Assembly: GCA_001790855.1 (NCBI GenBank)
Contig: MGDH01000022.1
Coordinates: 7,116 to 71,115, forward strand
DNA from: Candidatus Schekmanbacteria bacterium RIFCSPLOWO2_02_FULL_38_14
Lineage (GTDB): Bacteria > Schekmanbacteria > GWA2-38-11
Direction of reading: 5' to 3'
DNA length: 64,000 nt
Part shown: one piece after another, positions 57,642-64,000 of the stretch
Numbering within the stretch: the first letter of the stretch is position 1
How the letters are laid out: each line of letters opens with the position of its first letter
The notes under the pieces: model-generated
Database searches by the model: none
What the model was told of the DNA's origin: nothing
The model's input: the letters and a program-made list of their open reading frames with translations, nothing else
Position numbers and translations under genes: made by a program

Positions 57642-57803
57642 ATAGCTGTCAGCATTCAGCTATCAGATGTCAGTTTCCCATCAATAGTATTTTTTCATTG
57701 TCAATCAATAAACAGAATGGTATTATTTCCTTATTAAAGTTTGCATTGCTTAATTCACTTTCATTCAGACAAGTCCTTATTTAAGCAAAATCTGGATAAA
57801 AAT

Positions 57804-57992
57804 ATGGTTAAGAAAGTATTGAAAAGAAGTAATTTTAAAAATTCCTTATCAATAAAAGAGGACCTGTCATATTGGTTGAGCAGACCTACTGAAGAGCGCA
57901 TTTCAGCAGTAGAGTATCTAAGAAAACAATATTATGGAAGTACAGCAAGACTTCAGAGAGTTGTTAGCATTATTCAATTCCCACAAAGTTGA
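57804..57992 (+). CDS. Small hypothetical protein (62 aa) overlapping the downstream nucleotidyltransferase-fold gene
   Basis: MVKKVLKRSNFKNSLSIKEDLSYWLSRPTEERISAVEYLRKQYYGS... Its 3' end overlaps the next ORF by 59 nt in another frame. It is either a partner gene or the two ORFs are a frameshift artefact. Confidence 0.25.
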   Translation: MVKKVLKRSNFKNSLSIKEDLSYWLSRPTEERISAVEYLRKQYYGSTARLQRVVSIIQFPQS

Positions 57993-58380
57993 ATACATAA
58001 TCACAGGGGGGTATGCCTTGGCGTTTCATGGCGCCCCTCGCTATACTGGTGATCTTGATATTTTTGTAAAACCCGATGAAGAAAACGCCCGCAGGGTATT
58101 AGCAGCACTTGATGAATTTGGATTTGGTTCAGTTGGCCTGAAGGAATCAGATTTTACTTATCCTGAGAAAGTTGTACAGCTTGGTGTTCCACCAGTCCGT
58201 ATTGATATTATTTCATCCCTGTCAGGAGTTTTATGGGAAGAGGCACTTTTGGGCAGAGTCGAAGGAAAATATGGAGACATTTCCGTATATTACCTTGGTA
58301 AAAATCAGTTTATATCTAACAAGAGAGCAATGGGGAGGAAAAAGGACATGGCTGATATTGAGGCACTTGGTGAAGAATAA
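57934..58380 (+). CDS. Nucleotidyltransferase-fold protein (minimal NTase / AbiEii-DUF6036-like)
   Basis: FRELLALFNSHKVEYIITGGYALAFHGAPRYTGDLDIFV contains the G-G/S...hG...D-h-D NTase signature. Length is about 148 aa. Confidence 0.45.
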   Translation: MEVQQDFRELLALFNSHKVEYIITGGYALAFHGAPRYTGDLDIFVKPDEENARRVLAALDEFGFGSVGLKESDFTYPEKVVQLGVPPVRIDIISSLSGVLWEEALLGRVEGKYGDISVYYLGKNQFISNKRAMGRKKDMADIEALGEE

Positions 58381-58406: not shown

Positions 58407-59687
58407 CTACAGACACTGCATCAGGTTTCGGCTCCAGAGGCAGTCGCCGCAAGGCTCGTCGTTCCCAAAGCAGTCTCCCTCAAACCTGTCTAAGAATCCG
58501 CAGCTTCCATAGGCAGGGCATTCAAGGCAGTGAGGATAAGTAAATTTATCAACACATGCCCTTAGTTCAACAAACTTTTTGGAATTCCAGATTTTTTCTA
58601 AAGATTTGTCATTTATATTCCCAAGACTCAATGGATAAACCTCACGACTTGTGCTGTCAAGATGGAATTTATGGGAGTGCATTAGCCTTGAGCAGGGTTT
58701 TACCTCGCCATCCCAAGAAATAAAAGCAGTTCTGTTCTTAACGAATTTGCATTCACGCTTTACATCTGAGTTTATTGGTGGAAGTGATAGCTCTATATTC
58801 AGCTTATCTGCTATTTTTTTTGTGGCTGCAAAAATATCTCTTTCCTTTGCAAGTGTTTTTTCATCTCTTTCAAAAAGCTTTCTTAAGTTTAGGAATATAT
58901 CGTGGGATGCTGCTTCAGAATATGCGTCATTTATAACTGAATTTAATTTCTGTTCATACTCTTTTGTAACCATTTCTTTTCTGAAGAAGCTGAAGTTATA
59001 GTAATTTTTAAGATTCACTCCCTCTGTCCTTGCGCGTTTCATTGCTTTCTGGAAAATATCAATTGAAGCCTGAGACAGCATTTCAAATGATACCTCATTG
59101 AGCATTTCTTCTGTGTAGGGGAGGAGATGGGAAACTATTATAAACTCTATTTTATTTTCCTTTGCAAAATTTACTGCAAGAGGAAGCTCATCAAGATTGC
59201 GTTTCATTACCACGAATTCAAGTCCGAGTTTAGGCTTGCTTGTTTTTATTTTCTCTTTATACTGATTAATAAAATCTATGCTTTCTTTAATCTTTTTAAA
59301 ATTTCCGCCCCTTCTTATATAGCCATAGGTTTCTGGTTTTATTCCGTCTATTGAGATTACAAGTTTGTCAATTTTGCTGCTTACAATTGCCTGAGCAGTT
59401 TTTTCGCATATAAGCATTGCGTTTGTTGTAAAACCGATTTCACTGTTTTCAGGCAAAAGTTCCTTTGCGATTTTAATTATTTCAAAAAGGCTGGCGTTCA
59501 TCAAAGGTTCGCCGAGTCCGGTAAGATTCAGAAATTTTATTTGAGGCAAAGCAGGGATGAGTTTTTTAAATGTGCTGAGGTCCATATCTCCCTGATTTTC
59601 AGAGAATGTACCTCTCATGCACGTCCTGCAACTGATATTGCAGCGTGAAGATGTTTCAACATAAAGCTGTTTGATATGGTCTGTCAT
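58407..59687 (-). CDS. Radical SAM enzyme with C-terminal SPASM domain (possible Cmo-like cofactor/peptide-modifying maturase)
   Basis: CNISCRTC is a CxxxCxxC motif within LYVETSSRCNISCRTCMRG. The C-terminus is Cys-rich and SPASM-like (C...CPAYGSCGF...CGDCLWSRN). Length is 426 aa. Confidence 0.75.
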   Translation of the reverse strand: MTDHIKQLYVETSSRCNISCRTCMRGTFSENQGDMDLSTFKKLIPALPQIKFLNLTGLGEPLMNASLFEIIKIAKELLPENSEIGFTTNAMLICEKTAQAIVSSKIDKLVISIDGIKPETYGYIRRGGNFKKIKESIDFINQYKEKIKTSKPKLGLEFVVMKRNLDELPLAVNFAKENKIEFIIVSHLLPYTEEMLNEVSFEMLSQASIDIFQKAMKRARTEGVNLKNYYNFSFFRKEMVTKEYEQKLNSVINDAYSEAASHDIFLNLRKLFERDEKTLAKERDIFAATKKIADKLNIELSLPPINSDVKRECKFVKNRTAFISWDGEVKPCSRLMHSHKFHLDSTSREVYPLSLGNINDKSLEKIWNSKKFVELRACVDKFTYPHCLECPAYGSCGFLDRFEGDCFGNDEPCGDCLWSRNLMQCL

Positions 59688-59774
59688 AATGATTAAGAAT
59701 ACTAATTTAATTAAAAAAATCCATGATTTTAATCATAGTTTATTGAAAAAAGTTTAGCAGAAAGCTTATATCCC

Positions 59775-59804
59775 ATAAAATAAAAACGCACCCAAAGGGG
59801 TGCG
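59775..59804 (-). terminator. Rho-independent terminator downstream of the moaD-like gene
   Basis: On the minus strand, hairpin CGCACCC-CTTT-GGGTGCG (7-bp GC-rich stem) is followed by TTTTTATTTTAT. Confidence 0.6.
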
Positions 59805-59843
59805 CAACATTTTGCAATTTAAAATTTCCAATTTTAAATTTAT

Positions 59844-60092
59844 TTAAGATGCTCCTCCTGCAACAGGTGGGAATATGGCTACACGGTCTCCGTCTTTTAA
59901 AAGACAGCTGAGTTCAGCATGGACTCCGTTCACAATAATTATCTTTGTTTCTTTTTCAGGGATTCCAAGCTGGTGAAGCAGCCCCTGTATGGTAAGACCT
60001 TCTTTGGCGGAAATCTTTTTGCCTTCTTTCAAATCAAGTCCGGGCAAATATTTTAATAAAGTAGCATATGTCCTGACTTCAATATCTGCCAT
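59844..60092 (-). CDS. MoaD/ThiS-family ubiquitin-like small protein ending ...VAGGAS (Gly-Gly followed by two extra residues)
   Basis: 82 aa. Beta-grasp-like composition. C-terminus DRVAIFPPVAGGAS has the GG motif of sulfur carriers plus a 2-residue tail. It sits immediately downstream of the AOR gene. Confidence 0.55.
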   Translation of the reverse strand: MADIEVRTYATLLKYLPGLDLKEGKKISAKEGLTIQGLLHQLGIPEKETKIIIVNGVHAELSCLLKDGDRVAIFPPVAGGAS

Positions 60093-60154
60093 TTTAAGCT
60101 TCCTAAATTAATCCCCTATGAACTTACAAACTTGCTTTTTATCTATTTCAAACT

Positions 60155-60201
60155 AAATCCCCCCTACCCCCCTTTGTTAAAGGGGGGATTTGGGGGGATT
60201 T
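60155..60201. repeat. Strong G6/C6 inverted repeat AAATCCCCCC-TA-CCCCCCTT...AAGGGGGG-ATTT-GGGGGGATTT between the AOR gene and the moaD-like gene
   Basis: Read directly. Two C6 runs face two G6 runs about 10 nt away, giving a stem of at least 20 bp with an internal loop. It lies inside the aor-moaD intercistronic spacer. Confidence 0.55.
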
Positions 60202-60230
60202 TAACTTCTCGAAGAAACATATTCTTACCC

Positions 60231-61967
60231 TTAGATATTAGCCCAAACTTTATCAAGCTCTTCAGGTTTAATCTCAAATGTTATATTGTGAGGCGGGCAT
60301 TTTTCATCATCAAAAAATTCCGGCAGACGGTCATCAGCCTTGGTAAAGCCTGCTTTCCTGTTGAACTCAAGCTCTGTCTTAATGACCTGTGTGCCGATTT
60401 TTGGAATATCATCAACTGTAAGTGTTGTGCCGTATTCGGCATTGATCATGTCTATAATCGCCTGCAATCCTTCCGGCAGGTCAAGGCAGGCAATTGCAAC
60501 AAAGAGGCAAAGCCCTGTGCAATCAACTGTTGCTGTTGCAATCTGCATGGCTCTTGACACATCTACCTGCCCCTCCGGTTTTAATGGATTAACATCTCCG
60601 CCTACCTTAAGGATATTCTGCAGTACCGCATATCCTGCAGTATGGTCTCCACCCATTGTGCTGGTTGCATAAGTTACACCGATTCCTTTTACAGTCCTCG
60701 GGTCATATGCGGGTAATCCCTGTCCTTTAACTGCTGCAACTCTTGAAATTCCAAAAACTCTACCTGTTACTGCTGCTCCCTGACCTAAAATTTTTCCAAG
60801 AGGAGTTTTCTTGCCAATTTCCTGAAGCAACTTAATGAAAGAATCTGCATCACCCCATTTTGCAAGCCCTGCTTCTGCGGCAACTGCAAGAGTAACACCT
60901 GACTCTATAGTATCAAGTCCGGTGTCTGAACAAATCCTTATCATCTGGGCAACCTTGTCAAGGTCATCTACTTCAAGATTAGCACCAAGAGACCATACAG
61001 ATTCATATTCCATTGGTGCTGTTATAGCCTTGCCATTTTTGTCAGGATATATATTTGAACATCTGATAACACAACCCGGATGGCATGCATGGACAGCCTT
61101 CCCTTCTCCTCCACGGGCTTTGGCTACTTCTGCTATTTTTTCTCCACTAATGTTGGCTGCTGTTTCAAAACGCCCTCTTCTGAAATTCTTTGTTGGGAAG
61201 CCTCCAGCTTCATTCAATATGTTTACAAGAACTGCTGTGCCGTAATTCGGCAGGGCTTCACCTGTTACGGGATGCTTTAGCAAAACCTGTGAAAATACCT
61301 TTGCAGCATTTTTAAACTTTTCTTCATCTTTTATAGGAACCTTATCTGCACCCTTGTCATCTACGATGATAGCCTTAATTTTTTTTGAACCCATTACTGC
61401 GCCAAGACCACCGCGCCCGGCAAATCTGCCCGGTCCTCCTTCAGGGTCATTTACTGAAATCCCTGCATTGCACATTCTTTCCTCACCGGCAACGCCAATG
61501 CATATTACGCCAACCTTTCCGTATTTGTCCCAGAGCTTTTTATTAAGCTCATATGTTCCAATGCCTGCTAAGTCATTGGCAGGAACGATTTTTACACCGT
61601 CCTTGGTCACTTCCAGCATATAAAATTTATTATCTTTTGGCATCCCTTCAATGATAATGGCTTTCACATTACATTTTGCAAGTTTCTGACTTGCAATACC
61701 GCCTACGTTGGATTCCTTAATTGCTCCGGTCAGAGGGCTTTTCCCGCCAAAAGACATCCTTCCTGAACAGGCAGCAGATGTTCCGCTTAAAAGTCCCGGC
61801 GCCAGAATCAATTTATTGTGAATGCCCAGAGGATGGCAGGTAGCAGGAACTTCATCATTAACTATTGATGACGTTAATCCCCTTCCCCCTGCAGCAGCAT
61901 ATTTAGAAGGACATTTCTCCTCCTTGACCTTCAAATCGGTCATGTTCACCCTATAAATTTTGTCCAT
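60231..61967 (-). CDS. aor: Aldehyde:ferredoxin oxidoreductase (tungsten/molybdopterin AOR family)
   Basis: N-terminal AOR_N domain MDKIYRVNMTDLKV...GGRGL...GKSPLTG. Central ...GPGRFAGRGGLGAVMGSKKIKAIIV.... C-terminal AOR family domain. Length is 578 aa. Confidence 0.85.
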   Translation of the reverse strand: MDKIYRVNMTDLKVKEEKCPSKYAAAGGRGLTSSIVNDEVPATCHPLGIHNKLILAPGLLSGTSAACSGRMSFGGKSPLTGAIKESNVGGIASQKLAKCNVKAIIIEGMPKDNKFYMLEVTKDGVKIVPANDLAGIGTYELNKKLWDKYGKVGVICIGVAGEERMCNAGISVNDPEGGPGRFAGRGGLGAVMGSKKIKAIIVDDKGADKVPIKDEEKFKNAAKVFSQVLLKHPVTGEALPNYGTAVLVNILNEAGGFPTKNFRRGRFETAANISGEKIAEVAKARGGEGKAVHACHPGCVIRCSNIYPDKNGKAITAPMEYESVWSLGANLEVDDLDKVAQMIRICSDTGLDTIESGVTLAVAAEAGLAKWGDADSFIKLLQEIGKKTPLGKILGQGAAVTGRVFGISRVAAVKGQGLPAYDPRTVKGIGVTYATSTMGGDHTAGYAVLQNILKVGGDVNPLKPEGQVDVSRAMQIATATVDCTGLCLFVAIACLDLPEGLQAIIDMINAEYGTTLTVDDIPKIGTQVIKTELEFNRKAGFTKADDRLPEFFDDEKCPPHNITFEIKPEELDKVWANI

Positions 61968-62144: not shown

Positions 62145-63584
62145 TTATTTCAGAGGGAAGTAGAGGACTCTCCAGTGATTTTTCACACCTTCTTTTTTAT
62201 GTTCGAAAAGTCCTTTTAATATTGAAAAGCCTTTTCCGCTTTTATCGCTTTCATACGAGAAAAGAAGCGGTATTTTAATTGTTTTCCAATCATCTTTCTT
62301 CTGGTATTTGTAAAGGTCCCAGAAAAGGGTTGTCTCGGAATTACCCTTTTTGTCCCTGTTGTATCTGCAGAAAGTCCAGAAAGGCGAGAAGTTTTTTTCA
62401 AATTTTTCTATGAACAGTCCCTCCCCTGAAAAAGGTATCAATGACAGGGAAGAAATTTCTGTTCTGTCCTCTTTGTCCCTTCTGTAAGACAGAAAAGGCC
62501 AGAGATTGATTTTTCTTGCGGTTTTCTTTCCGTCTGTCCATGTTTCCTTTCTGTCTGTAAAAAAAGGTACAAGGGTTTTAACCTTTTTTTCATGTCCATC
62601 TGTGGTTATTTTATCAAACCAGAAGAATGGCCAGAGGAAAAAATTGTGTGTTATATCTTCGCTTTTATCGAATCTGAAAAGAGGGAAGAATTGCCTTACC
62701 TGCCTTGTTTCTCCGGAAGTAAAAGAAAAAACAGGCCAGATGATATCGTAGCGAGCATAGTTCCGTTTTTTGTTATTATCATACAGATATAAAGGAAACA
62801 TTACGACTCCAACTTCTCTTTCCTCTGATTTCTCATAACCATAGAATGGAAGCACAATCAGACTCTCTTCTGCAAGTTTATTCCCTTCATAGAATTTCTG
62901 GTTGCTGTAGAATGGCCAGAGATAATATTTTTTAAGGTATTTTCCTTCTGCTTTGTCAAAGCCGTAAAATGGAAAGAATTTAAAACCTGTATGCCCTTCT
63001 CCCTTTGCGTAATGGAATATGGGCCAGAGAATTTCCCATCCTCTGTCATCACCTTTTCTTGTTTCAACATAGAGAGGAAAGCCTATAAATTTTAATTCAT
63101 CCTTATTAAGCCACTTTTTTAAGTTTCCATAAAATGGGAAGAAAAGGTTGTATTTTCCGTTTTCTGCTTCTCCGCCTATATAGAAGGGAAGAAACAGAGT
63201 GGAGCCAATCCTTCTGCCGTCATCCTGTGTTTCATATTTTGAATAATAAAATGGGATAAACCTTCCAAGCACCCCTTTTTCATCTCTCGCATATCTTCCA
63301 AGGGGCCAGAAAAAGTCTATATTTATCTTTTTTTTATCAATATCTTCTTCAACATCAAGGACAGGTCTCAATGCATAATTTAACTTTTCCGGACTGTATT
63401 TCAGTTCAAACAGAGGACCCAAGATTCTTACTTCTGCGGATTGCCTTGAGTCATCAGTTTTTTTATAATACAGGGGGCTTAAGTCTAAATATTCTTCTTC
63501 TGAGAAAGCGGGTAAAGGATTTGAAAGAATCAGTCCATAGAATAGCAGCGCAATGATGGATAAAAAACAACATTTCTTTGTCAT
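62145..63584 (-). CDS. Secreted aromatic-rich repeat protein (about 20 degenerate h-W/F-P-h-F/Y repeats of roughly 22 aa), function unknown
   Basis: Signal peptide MTKKCCFLSIIALLFYGLILS. Periodic units include FFPFYGN, IGFPLYVE, ILWPIFHY, FFPFYGFDK, YLWPFYSNQ, IVLPFYGYE, VMFPLYLYD, IIWPVFSF, FFPLFRFDK, FLWPFFWFDK, LVPFFTDRK and NLWPFLSYRRD. Start is placed at the internal Met (63584). Confidence 0.4.
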   Translation of the reverse strand: MTKKCCFLSIIALLFYGLILSNPLPAFSEEEYLDLSPLYYKKTDDSRQSAEVRILGPLFELKYSPEKLNYALRPVLDVEEDIDKKKINIDFFWPLGRYARDEKGVLGRFIPFYYSKYETQDDGRRIGSTLFLPFYIGGEAENGKYNLFFPFYGNLKKWLNKDELKFIGFPLYVETRKGDDRGWEILWPIFHYAKGEGHTGFKFFPFYGFDKAEGKYLKKYYLWPFYSNQKFYEGNKLAEESLIVLPFYGYEKSEEREVGVVMFPLYLYDNNKKRNYARYDIIWPVFSFTSGETRQVRQFFPLFRFDKSEDITHNFFLWPFFWFDKITTDGHEKKVKTLVPFFTDRKETWTDGKKTARKINLWPFLSYRRDKEDRTEISSLSLIPFSGEGLFIEKFEKNFSPFWTFCRYNRDKKGNSETTLFWDLYKYQKKDDWKTIKIPLLFSYESDKSGKGFSILKGLFEHKKEGVKNHWRVLYFPLK

Positions 63585-63686
63585 AGTATTAAAATGCGGG
63601 GTCAGAAGACCCCACCTGTCTGCATGCAGAATATTCCTCTCATGCGAGCGGGTTATAATGAATTTTAAGCTCAGCACAATAAATTC

Positions 63687-64000
63687 TCAGAAGAGAGAGA
63701 ACAGGGCGCTTATGAAAGTTGATATCGGAGAAAGCTCGCTTGCCTGCTCTGCCGAATCCCCAAGCTGTTTCAGAGATTTTTTAGCATCATGGTAGAGCGT
63801 TTCATCATTGACAAGTTTTCCAAGGGTTCCTTCGCCCTTATCAACCTTTGCAGTAATGCTGTTTAAGGATTTTGTGGTATCTTTAAGTCCAGCAATTGTT
63901 TCTTTAAGGTTTTCCCTGTTCTCCTGAATGACTGAATCAAGGTCTTTGCTGATTTTTGAAAATTTCTCCATTACCTCAGGGGTTTTTTCTCTTAATGTGC
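63687..64000 (-). CDS. MCE/MlaD-family protein, C-terminal part (gene continues beyond window end)
   Basis: The frame is open to nt 64000. C-terminal segment DKGEGTLGKLVNDETLYHDAKKSL resembles the conserved GEGT/SLGKLLNDD.LY motif of MCE-domain proteins. Confidence 0.45.
   Translation of the reverse strand, partial: TLREKTPEVMEKFSKISKDLDSVIQENRENLKETIAGLKDTTKSLNSITAKVDKGEGTLGKLVNDETLYHDAKKSLKQLGDSAEQASELSPISTFISALFSLF

Follow-up and report, generated by a model that had tools for sequence, protein, structure and literature searches.

A beta-hairpin-repeat protein encoded beside needle-type MlaD, a probable component of Mla lipid transporters

How MCE/Mla machines insert phospholipids into the outer membrane, or extract them from it, is an acknowledged gap. 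Needle-bearing MCE proteins (PqiB, PA3213, Brucella Mpc and mycobacterial Mce1) are thought to span the periplasm, some of them docking onto an outer-membrane partner, and PqiC-like lipoproteins are believed to work where the trans-envelope MCE conduit reaches the outer membrane (PMC13631591, PMC12436622). As of 2026, the outer-membrane partners described for MCE systems are porin-like barrels and MlaA-like or PqiC-like lipoproteins, with none identified for several systems (PMC13631591). In Veillonella parvula, a long MlaD carries a fused C-terminal outer-membrane beta-barrel of 10 strands, and for most long MlaDs, which have no such barrel, as yet unidentified accessory proteins have been postulated (PMC10665443). 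Here we analyzed a window of 64,000 nucleotides from Candidatus Schekmanbacteria bacterium RIFCSPLOWO2_02_FULL_38_14 (assembly GCA_001790855.1, contig MGDH01000022.1, positions 7,116 to 71,115), in which a minus-strand gene at 62145..63584 encodes a protein of 479 aa, plus stop codon, built almost entirely from aromatic-proline beta-hairpin repeats. The comparisons below indicate that this protein is probably a dedicated component of a MlaE-MlaF-MlaD lipid ATP-binding cassette (ABC) transporter. The fuller explanation, that it serves as the outer-membrane-proximal partner of a barrel-less, needle-type MlaD, stands in our view at about even chances, and its individual elements, namely association with the outer membrane, contact with the MlaD tip and handling of lipids, are what we infer from the features presented here.

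Evidence for the functional link comes from gene neighborhood. Upstream of the repeat gene, the window contains the 3′ end of an mlaD-like (MCE) gene on the minus strand (63687..64000), comprising its final 103 codons and the stop codon (63687-63689); the gene continues past the window edge. Within the window this fragment gives only a sub-threshold NCBIfam Mce match (3e-9), because the MCE domain lies beyond the edge; a related contig (L001) encodes a 327-aa protein with PF02470 MlaD and PF28544 Helical_needle domains, whose C-terminus matches the 103 residues at 90% identity. There, genes for MlaE, an ABC_tran ATPase and MlaD are followed by an orthologue of the repeat protein with 79% identity, so that both the MlaE permease and the MlaF ATPase companions of the upstream MlaD are found in the orthologous contig. 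We then looked up singly 11 divergent homologues of normal length, taken from different sequence clusters. In all 11 the gene is directly adjoined by mlaE, and in nine a needle-type mlaD is present as well; in one of the remaining two the contig ends before the mlaD position, and in the other the gene calls are fragmentary and no MlaD was called. The order of the genes differs between lineages: the repeat gene is the last of the operon, following mlaE-(mlaF)-mlaD, in Schekmanbacteria-like contigs, Syntrophaceae and one further lineage, and the first in Geobacterales, Dadabacteria, Thermodesulfobacteriota, a Methylomirabilales-like contig and others, where it frequently abuts mlaE or overlaps with it. 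The retention of the neighborhood across phyla despite such rearrangement is strong evidence for a functional link. Among 80 Geobacterales/Desulfuromonadales genomes, a phylogenetically narrow set derived from the Geobacterales sub-alignment A3, mlaE lies directly downstream in 79 and mlaD downstream in 74. An earlier note on this DNA had suggested checking whether MCE genes in other genomes are followed by the same repeat protein, and these counts (mlaE in 11/11 divergent members and 79/80 Geobacterales) uphold the link to MCE lipid transport, in either gene order; of its proposal that the protein is a lipid-trafficking accessory, the link to an MCE gene is borne out, while the accessory function itself is inferred from gene neighborhood.

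Two further observations concern the composition of these operons. In the Schekmanbacteria-type operon, two conserved genes stand between mlaE and the ABC ATPase gene (4526-6100 in L001 and 4749-6212 in L003), the first encoding an unannotated protein of 233-235 aa and the second an AAA+ protein of 246-250 aa with weak IstB_IS21/Bac_DnaA Pfam matches and an N-terminal CxxC...CxC motif; both are 44-59% identical between the two contigs, which argues against a recent insertion-sequence insertion. An alanine racemase gene lies directly upstream of the operon of Mla and partner genes in four contigs that are unrelated to one another, L005, L088, L089 and L090 (Dadabacteria, Syntrophaceae and others), a proximity that could be a coincidence or a link to the cell envelope.

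The MlaD proteins encoded beside the repeat gene share a common architecture. They are 296-377 aa long and consist of a transmembrane helix, the MCE domain, a helical region and a hydrophobic tail; PF02470 and PF28544 Helical_needle were both found in all nine contexts in which an MlaD was called, some of the needle matches being only weak or faint, and none of the partner MlaDs has an outer-membrane barrel domain. In the MlaDs of L001, L002 and L005, the helical region contains one to four copies of a conserved 15-residue motif, (K/R)GEGTLGKL(V/I)ND(D/E)xLY (in shorter form GEGTLGKLVNDxxLY), and the fragment in the window contains one copy of it at about 63800-63850. The chain in the window ends in a hydrophobic C-terminal tail (63690..63731, minus strand), SPISTFISALFSLF-COOH. 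Extraction of the tails from 84 loci gave the conserved form ...P(I/V)(S/T)V(L/I)G(S/T)(I/V)(I/V)GTLF, with a terminal Phe in 82 of the 84 loci and in several phyla; the ending can be summarized more generally as ...G(T/S)LF. As judged from its sequence, the tail resembles a single beta-strand or a beta-signal-like element, and the tails of the MlaD subunits could form a six-stranded tip like that of mycobacterial Mce1 or else augment the sheet of the partner protein.

With respect to the repeat gene itself, mechanical translation yields an open reading frame of 510 aa on the minus strand at 62145..63677 with a GTG start. The true start is likely the ATG at 63584, which we prefer over the GTG at 63677 since a signal peptide begins there and the closest homologues (P0001-P0003, 479-480 aa, query coverage 100%) are called at the matching length. 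The signal peptide, MTKKCCFLSIIALLFYGLILSNPLPAFS|EEE, was read from the sequence as a Sec signal for signal peptidase I occupying residues 1-28 (63501..63584, minus strand), with cleavage near AFS|EEE; inspection of the end of its hydrophobic region revealed no lipobox, and a crude regular expression identified a lipobox-like N-terminus in only 14 of 120 homologues. AlphaFold2 rendered residues 2-20 as a helix followed by a low-confidence linker. The protein is thus predicted to be exported.

The family is large and unannotated. The repeat protein had no Pfam-A or NCBIfam match at E≤1, and a sequence search of PDB chains gave no relative, with a single match at E=1.5. In a 90%-identity cluster database representing 5.8 billion clustered proteins we obtained 639 matches; the homologues listed have a query coverage of 88-100%, carry no precomputed Pfam domain and, if named at all, are named only ‘hypothetical protein’. 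An exhaustive profile search against 1.84 billion 50%-identity representatives gave 2,926 members at E≤1e-3 and 1,134 at E≤1e-30, mostly 440-560 aa long. The closest named relatives belong to Candidatus Schekmanbacteria (35-56% identity), followed at 26-32% by Desulfobacterota (Geobacteraceae, Syntrophaceae, Desulfobacteria, Thermodesulfobacteriota) and Dadabacteria; a Methylomirabilales metagenome-assembled genome is also represented, and full-length homologues extend down to about 25% identity. Cultured Geobacterales with a homologue include Citrifermentans bremense, Geomonas spp., Geobacter hydrogenophilus and Geotalea. A full-text literature search found no description of the hairpin-repeat family. 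The explanation that the reading frame is spurious or a low-complexity artefact has a negligible probability: its unusual composition (20% F+Y+W, 11% Lys) is all that speaks for it, against thousands of full-length homologues, invariant residues, confident structural models and conserved synteny. The gene is real and conserved, and the artefact reading is refuted.

The repeat is evident from the distribution of prolines. In the mature protein we counted 16 instances of the motif [LFIVMYW][WFLIVM]P[FLIVM], whereas 5,000 shuffled sequences contained 0.79 on average and never more than 5; in addition, 22 of the 23 prolines after residue 30 fall into one periodic series with a spacing of 17-23 aa or of 38 aa, corresponding to two periods. 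This spacing implies a unit of about 19-20 aa, present in about 19-23 copies. The best-conserved core of the array (residues 92-366; 62487..63311, minus strand) comprises 15 consecutive turns of the hydrophobic/aromatic-Pro-hydrophobic/aromatic type, with prolines at positions 94, 111, 133, 150, 170, 188, 205, 224, 246, 264, 284, 301, 319, 340 and 363. When 332 family members were aligned to the profile, 13 of these 15 prolines were conserved at 96-100%, P111 and P340 reaching only about 30%. The averaged unit, numbered from the proline, reads [L/F/V/I](-2) [W/F/L](-1) P(0) [L/F/I](+1) [Y/F](+2), and positions -2 to +2 are hydrophobic in 86-99% of cases across the same members; Arg and Lys are enriched at -5/-6 and +6, and Gly, Asp and Glu at ±9-10. 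Besides the invariant prolines seen in alignment A1, the homologues have invariant tryptophans and glycines. FPFYG and LWPxF units alternate weakly, and there is no blade-like periodicity beyond that.

These results agree in most respects with what the earlier note had read from this region. The open reading frame that it reported exists, with the strand corrected to minus; the claimed signal peptide is present and of the Sec type; the tandem repeat is real, as the shuffling shows, and the quoted examples FFPFYG, LWPFYS, LWPFFWFDK and NLWPFLSYRRD all occur in the protein. Its count of about 20 units holds, the unit being slightly shorter than the 22 aa given. The repeat had not been recognized there as a named family, in line with the absence of Pfam, NCBIfam and PDB sequence relatives, and a match to a characterized repeat family, named as an outcome that would overturn the proposal, did not occur in these databases.

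To describe the fold, we combined structure prediction with covariation. AlphaFold2, run on an alignment of 60 sequences, gave a model with a predicted local distance difference test (pLDDT) score of 89.4 and a predicted template-modelling (pTM) score of 0.71, in which residues 31-478 (62151..63494, minus strand) form an array of about 23 hairpins with 46 short strands as assigned by DSSP. The strands are 3-9 residues long, mostly 5-8, both sets of turns comprise 2-5 residues, and a single short helix at residues 390-402 interrupts the array. A separate model of the Citrifermentans bremense homologue P0066 (about 26% identical), built from its own 18-sequence alignment, showed the matching architecture (pLDDT 83, pTM 0.64). 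Mapping the sequence onto the model strands places the aromatic-Pro motif always in every second turn, and thus all motifs on one edge of the sheet, which is lined by about 19 [L/F/V/I]-[W/F]-Pro-[L/F/I]-[Y/F] ‘fingers’; the alternate turns are classic polar two-residue turns (EG, DG, GD, EN). In the models the ribbon is strongly polarized, with an aromatic/hydrophobic edge bearing a basic collar as opposed to a charged edge, and in the distal half of each strand polar or charged residues occupy both faces throughout the family.

The topology was tested by mean-field direct coupling analysis in the zero-sum gauge, excluding the gap state (earlier runs dominated by terminal gap blocks were discarded), with couplings averaged over the 15 core repeats and an effective sequence number of about 250, an alignment depth near the lower usable limit. 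Antiparallel ladders appeared at both types of turn, with values of 0.35-0.39 for the polar and 0.21-0.28 for the proline turns, relative to a background standard error of about 0.045, and the proline-turn ladder extends to 8-9 residues from the proline on both faces. No coupling was observed between strands i and i+3, where the averaged matrix was flat (about 0 ± 0.05). The ladders between adjacent strands together with the flat i/i+3 register indicate one continuous antiparallel hairpin meander, and they argue against a beta-arch taco, solenoid or jellyroll topology for the proline motif. Couplings of the N-terminal against the C-terminal part were enriched about 2-fold, but the C-terminal columns were noisy against every segment. 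According to the ladder register, residue -1 (W or F) and the proline are the two turn residues. Aromatic-cis-proline pairs are associated with type VI turns, and the register suggests that the finger turns may be aromatic-cis-proline turns.

Foldseek searches of the PDB with both models returned local resemblance only, with template-modelling scores (TM-scores) of at most 0.29, to WD40 propellers, teneurin YD shells, engineered single-layer OspA sheets and the ApoB100 belt, and judging from the models no solved structure has a matching global fold. Propellers were the top matches by E-value, yet with TM-scores of 0.10-0.16, and the loops of the model are all only 2-5 residues long. The earlier prediction of beta strands is thus upheld by 46 short strands at a pLDDT of 89, reproduced on a distant homologue, and the disordered, unconserved outcome that would have spoken against it did not arise; of the proposed solenoid, propeller or barrel, the solenoid gives way to the continuous hairpin meander seen by covariation, and a canonical propeller or transmembrane barrel finds no support in the TM-scores of at most 0.29, the short turns and the lack of a C-terminal beta-signal.

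The same structural data bear on the idea that the protein is an integral outer-membrane beta-barrel, inserted by BAM and acting as a pore or an anchor for the needle in the manner of TGD4 or the Veillonella MlaD. Such barrels are a known type of MCE outer-membrane partner (PMC13631591, PMC10665443), and the repeat protein, rich in aromatic residues, is modelled as all-beta and carries a predicted export signal. On the other hand, its strands of 3-9 residues fall short of the roughly 9-11 expected, each strand is polar on both faces over half its length, and with only short turns at either edge there are no long loops on one side. The query ends in ...LYFPLK and has no terminal aromatic beta-signal; nor is the C-terminal residue conserved among 120 homologues, being mostly K, E, G, P or Q and F/W/Y in only 13. 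None of the 50 best Foldseek matches listed is a membrane barrel. In addition, the giant paralogues P0155 (1767 aa), P0158 (1402 aa) and P0220 (1324 aa) have many more hydrophobic-Pro-hydrophobic hairpin units, so that the repeat number appears open-ended, which argues against a closed barrel with a fixed number of strands. We rejected the integral barrel as an assignment of the fold, and as an explanation of the function it is very improbable. The longer members examined, including P0126, P0155, P0158 and P0220, carry no Pfam domain, so no fusion was found among them; the N-terminal extension of P0126 is a low-complexity acidic, proline-rich region.

A more serious alternative, unlikely as it is on present evidence, is that of a soluble periplasmic lipid carrier or bridge, whose aromatic edge would shield acyl chains and which would operate as an MlaC-like shuttle or, by polymerizing or extending, as a passive LptA-like bridge alongside or beyond the needle. 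This would agree with the signal peptidase I signal, with the lack of a lipobox or C-terminal beta-signal in most members, and with the high charge content; the long run of consecutive short antiparallel strands is reminiscent of Lpt proteins, the local Foldseek similarity to the amphipathic beta-belt of ApoB100 points in the same direction, and the operon link with Mla genes supports a carrier equally well. LptA/LptC/LptD-N jellyrolls and the AsmA/TamB taco likewise carry lipids on a hydrophobic surface formed by consecutive antiparallel periplasmic strands. Against this, with a needle-type MlaD a shuttle is considered dispensable (PMC10665443). The protein has no Pfam match to the MlaC or OstA/LptA families, and the 50 best PDB matches listed for either model include neither Lpt nor TamB structures. 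The two-sheet groove of the Lpt/AsmA type, considered as a fold in its own right, was rejected, as only adjacent strands pair (0.2-0.39) and none in the i/i+3 register.

The protein might also be a structural scaffold or regulator that makes no contact with lipid, for instance a periplasmic spacer, a collar binding the cell wall, or a cap that gates or stabilizes the needle. The occurrence of giant paralogues outside Mla operons favors this, as does, unless coincidental, the frequent presence of the alanine racemase gene just upstream of the operon; moreover, choline-binding and glucan-binding proteins engage their ligands through aromatic-rich hairpin repeats of about 20 aa. However, the sequence matches neither CW_binding nor any other repeat family, no choline-binding or toxin-repeat structure is among the 50 best matches listed, and the five consecutive hydrophobic residues of each finger tip exceed what a sugar or choline site needs. 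We consider the scaffold or regulator quite unlikely. As a specific assignment, CW_binding_1 choline/cell-wall repeats, GW-rich units of 20 aa that form a hairpin solenoid without hydrogen bonds between successive hairpins, were rejected given the lack of a Pfam match, the pairing of successive hairpins by covariation and their absence from the Foldseek matches listed.

Returning to an outer-membrane-proximal partner of MlaD, the features would combine into the following mechanism. The transporter's MlaD has a long helical needle and the hydrophobic ...LF tail, without an outer-membrane barrel of its own, and the repeat protein would be placed at the outer-membrane end of this trans-envelope machine. 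There, its aromatic-proline finger edge may dip into or line the periplasmic leaflet of the outer membrane, or contact acyl chains, and the hydrophobic ...LF tips of the MlaD hexamer would dock into the protein. A shielded phospholipid path would in this way be completed between the needle lumen and the outer membrane, in a role analogous to that of PqiC, of MlaA-porin or of the fused barrel of Veillonella MlaD.

Several observations weigh against this mechanism. A content of about 30% charged residues, together with the absence of a lipid anchor in most members, would be just as expected of a soluble periplasmic protein. Nor is net charge conserved in the family (median +2, ranging from negative values to +24), which weakens any argument from the basic collar. 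The composition of the system varies as well: within 7 kb of the partner-mlaE-mlaD loci of the 80 Geobacterales genomes no ABC ATPase gene was found (0/80), unlike in other lineages, where mlaF lies in the operon, so in Geobacterales the ATPase is either supplied from elsewhere or the system works differently. Finally, the gene for P0155 has no Mla genes nearby and is flanked instead by genes for glycoside hydrolases (GH92, GH2), alpha-2-macroglobulin and TonB, neighbors reminiscent of a Bacteroidota genome. The repeat module as such is thus not specific to lipid transport.

The DNA flanking the repeat gene has additional features. The spacer between mlaD and the partner gene (63585-63686, 101 nt) is unusually well conserved overall, and a scan for terminator-like elements identified in it, about 10 nt ahead of the repeat ATG, a GC-rich stem-loop on the minus strand (63596..63615) with the sequence GGGGUC-UUCU-GACCCC and a U-rich run after it. 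The stem-loop is kept in L001 with a compensatory C-G to U-A change, and its RNA fold z-score is -2.05; in the more distant L003 the spacer measures only 17 nt and has no hairpin. The element could act through attenuation or through mRNA stability to fix the ratio of mlaD to partner expression. Downstream of the repeat gene, a gap of 177 nt precedes minus-strand genes (58407-61967) for an aldehyde:ferredoxin oxidoreductase (AFOR_N/AFOR_C), an 82-aa ThiS/MoaD-like protein and a radical-SAM/SPASM protein. L001 has kept the oxidoreductase-ThiS pair; in other lineages the downstream genes are not conserved neighbors. Further on, a plus-strand open reading frame of 148 aa (57934-58380) without a Pfam match at E≤1e-5 overlaps the end of one of 83 aa (57741-57992).

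The hairpin-repeat family and its fold are themselves undescribed, and the family provides a candidate, searchable by sequence, for the step at which MCE/Mla machines exchange phospholipids with the outer membrane. The broader proposal, that it supplies the subunit still missing at the outer-membrane end of the widespread barrel-less needle-type MlaEFD transporters, with a 46-strand ribbon fold that has no solved relative, is one that we advance only tentatively; if true, it would add a fourth, structurally unprecedented class of MCE outer-membrane partner. The homologues in cultured Geobacterales may allow its role to be tested, and the family deserves a Pfam or NCBIfam model, which would permit consistent annotation of the operons.

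Considering fold first, YD-repeat (Rhs/teneurin) shells and the OspA single-layer sheet are, like the present model, long antiparallel sheets of hairpin repeats of about 20 aa, and they were the most consistent high-probability structural matches besides WD40 propellers, with TM-scores of only 0.12-0.29. The aromatic-Pro turn motif and the polarized edge are specific to the repeat family and distinguish it from both YD/Rhs and OspA; an assignment to YD/Rhs repeats was rejected because there is no RHS/YD sequence motif or Pfam match and the teneurin similarity is local (TMq 0.12-0.18). In terms of role, the MlaA-OmpC/F complex and MlaC of Escherichia coli are comparable as accessories that join the MlaFED inner-membrane complex to the outer membrane. 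They differ, however, in fold, MlaA being a lipoprotein built of alpha-helices and MlaC a small shuttle of the alpha/beta class, and in their MlaD, which is short and has no needle, whereas the MlaD here is long and of the needle type; identity with MlaA (VacJ) or MlaC was rejected given 0 Pfam and 0 NCBIfam matches and an all-beta model.

PqiC-like proteins (E. coli PqiC, Pseudomonas aeruginosa PA3214 and Brucella Mpc) are encoded, as is the repeat protein, in the same operon as a needle-bearing MCE protein, and the PA3211-PA3214 and Mpc operons, again as here, also contain MlaE/MlaF-like genes. PqiC itself, a lipoprotein of about 190 aa, adopts an LptE-like alpha/beta fold and assembles into rings of eight subunits, whereas the repeat protein is about 450 aa long, all-beta and usually without a lipobox. 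A PqiC-like identity was rejected on the grounds of the missing lipobox, the lack of a Pfam match at E≤1 and of a fold match, and the all-beta model of the 479-aa chain. Chloroplasts possess an MlaE/MlaF/MlaD-like ABC transporter, TGD1/2/3, with a separate beta-rich outer-envelope protein, TGD4, an LptD-like transmembrane barrel; the repeat protein, unlike TGD4, lacks the features of a transmembrane barrel. The Veillonella system shares the MlaEFD core with an elongated helical MlaD that has been proposed to bridge the envelope, but there the barrel is fused to MlaD, whereas here MlaD ends in a single hydrophobic strand and a separate 46-strand protein is encoded alongside. By analogy, then, the type of system resembles both the tripartite MCE systems (PqiABC, PA3211-14, Mpc) and the trans-envelope MlaD of Veillonella.

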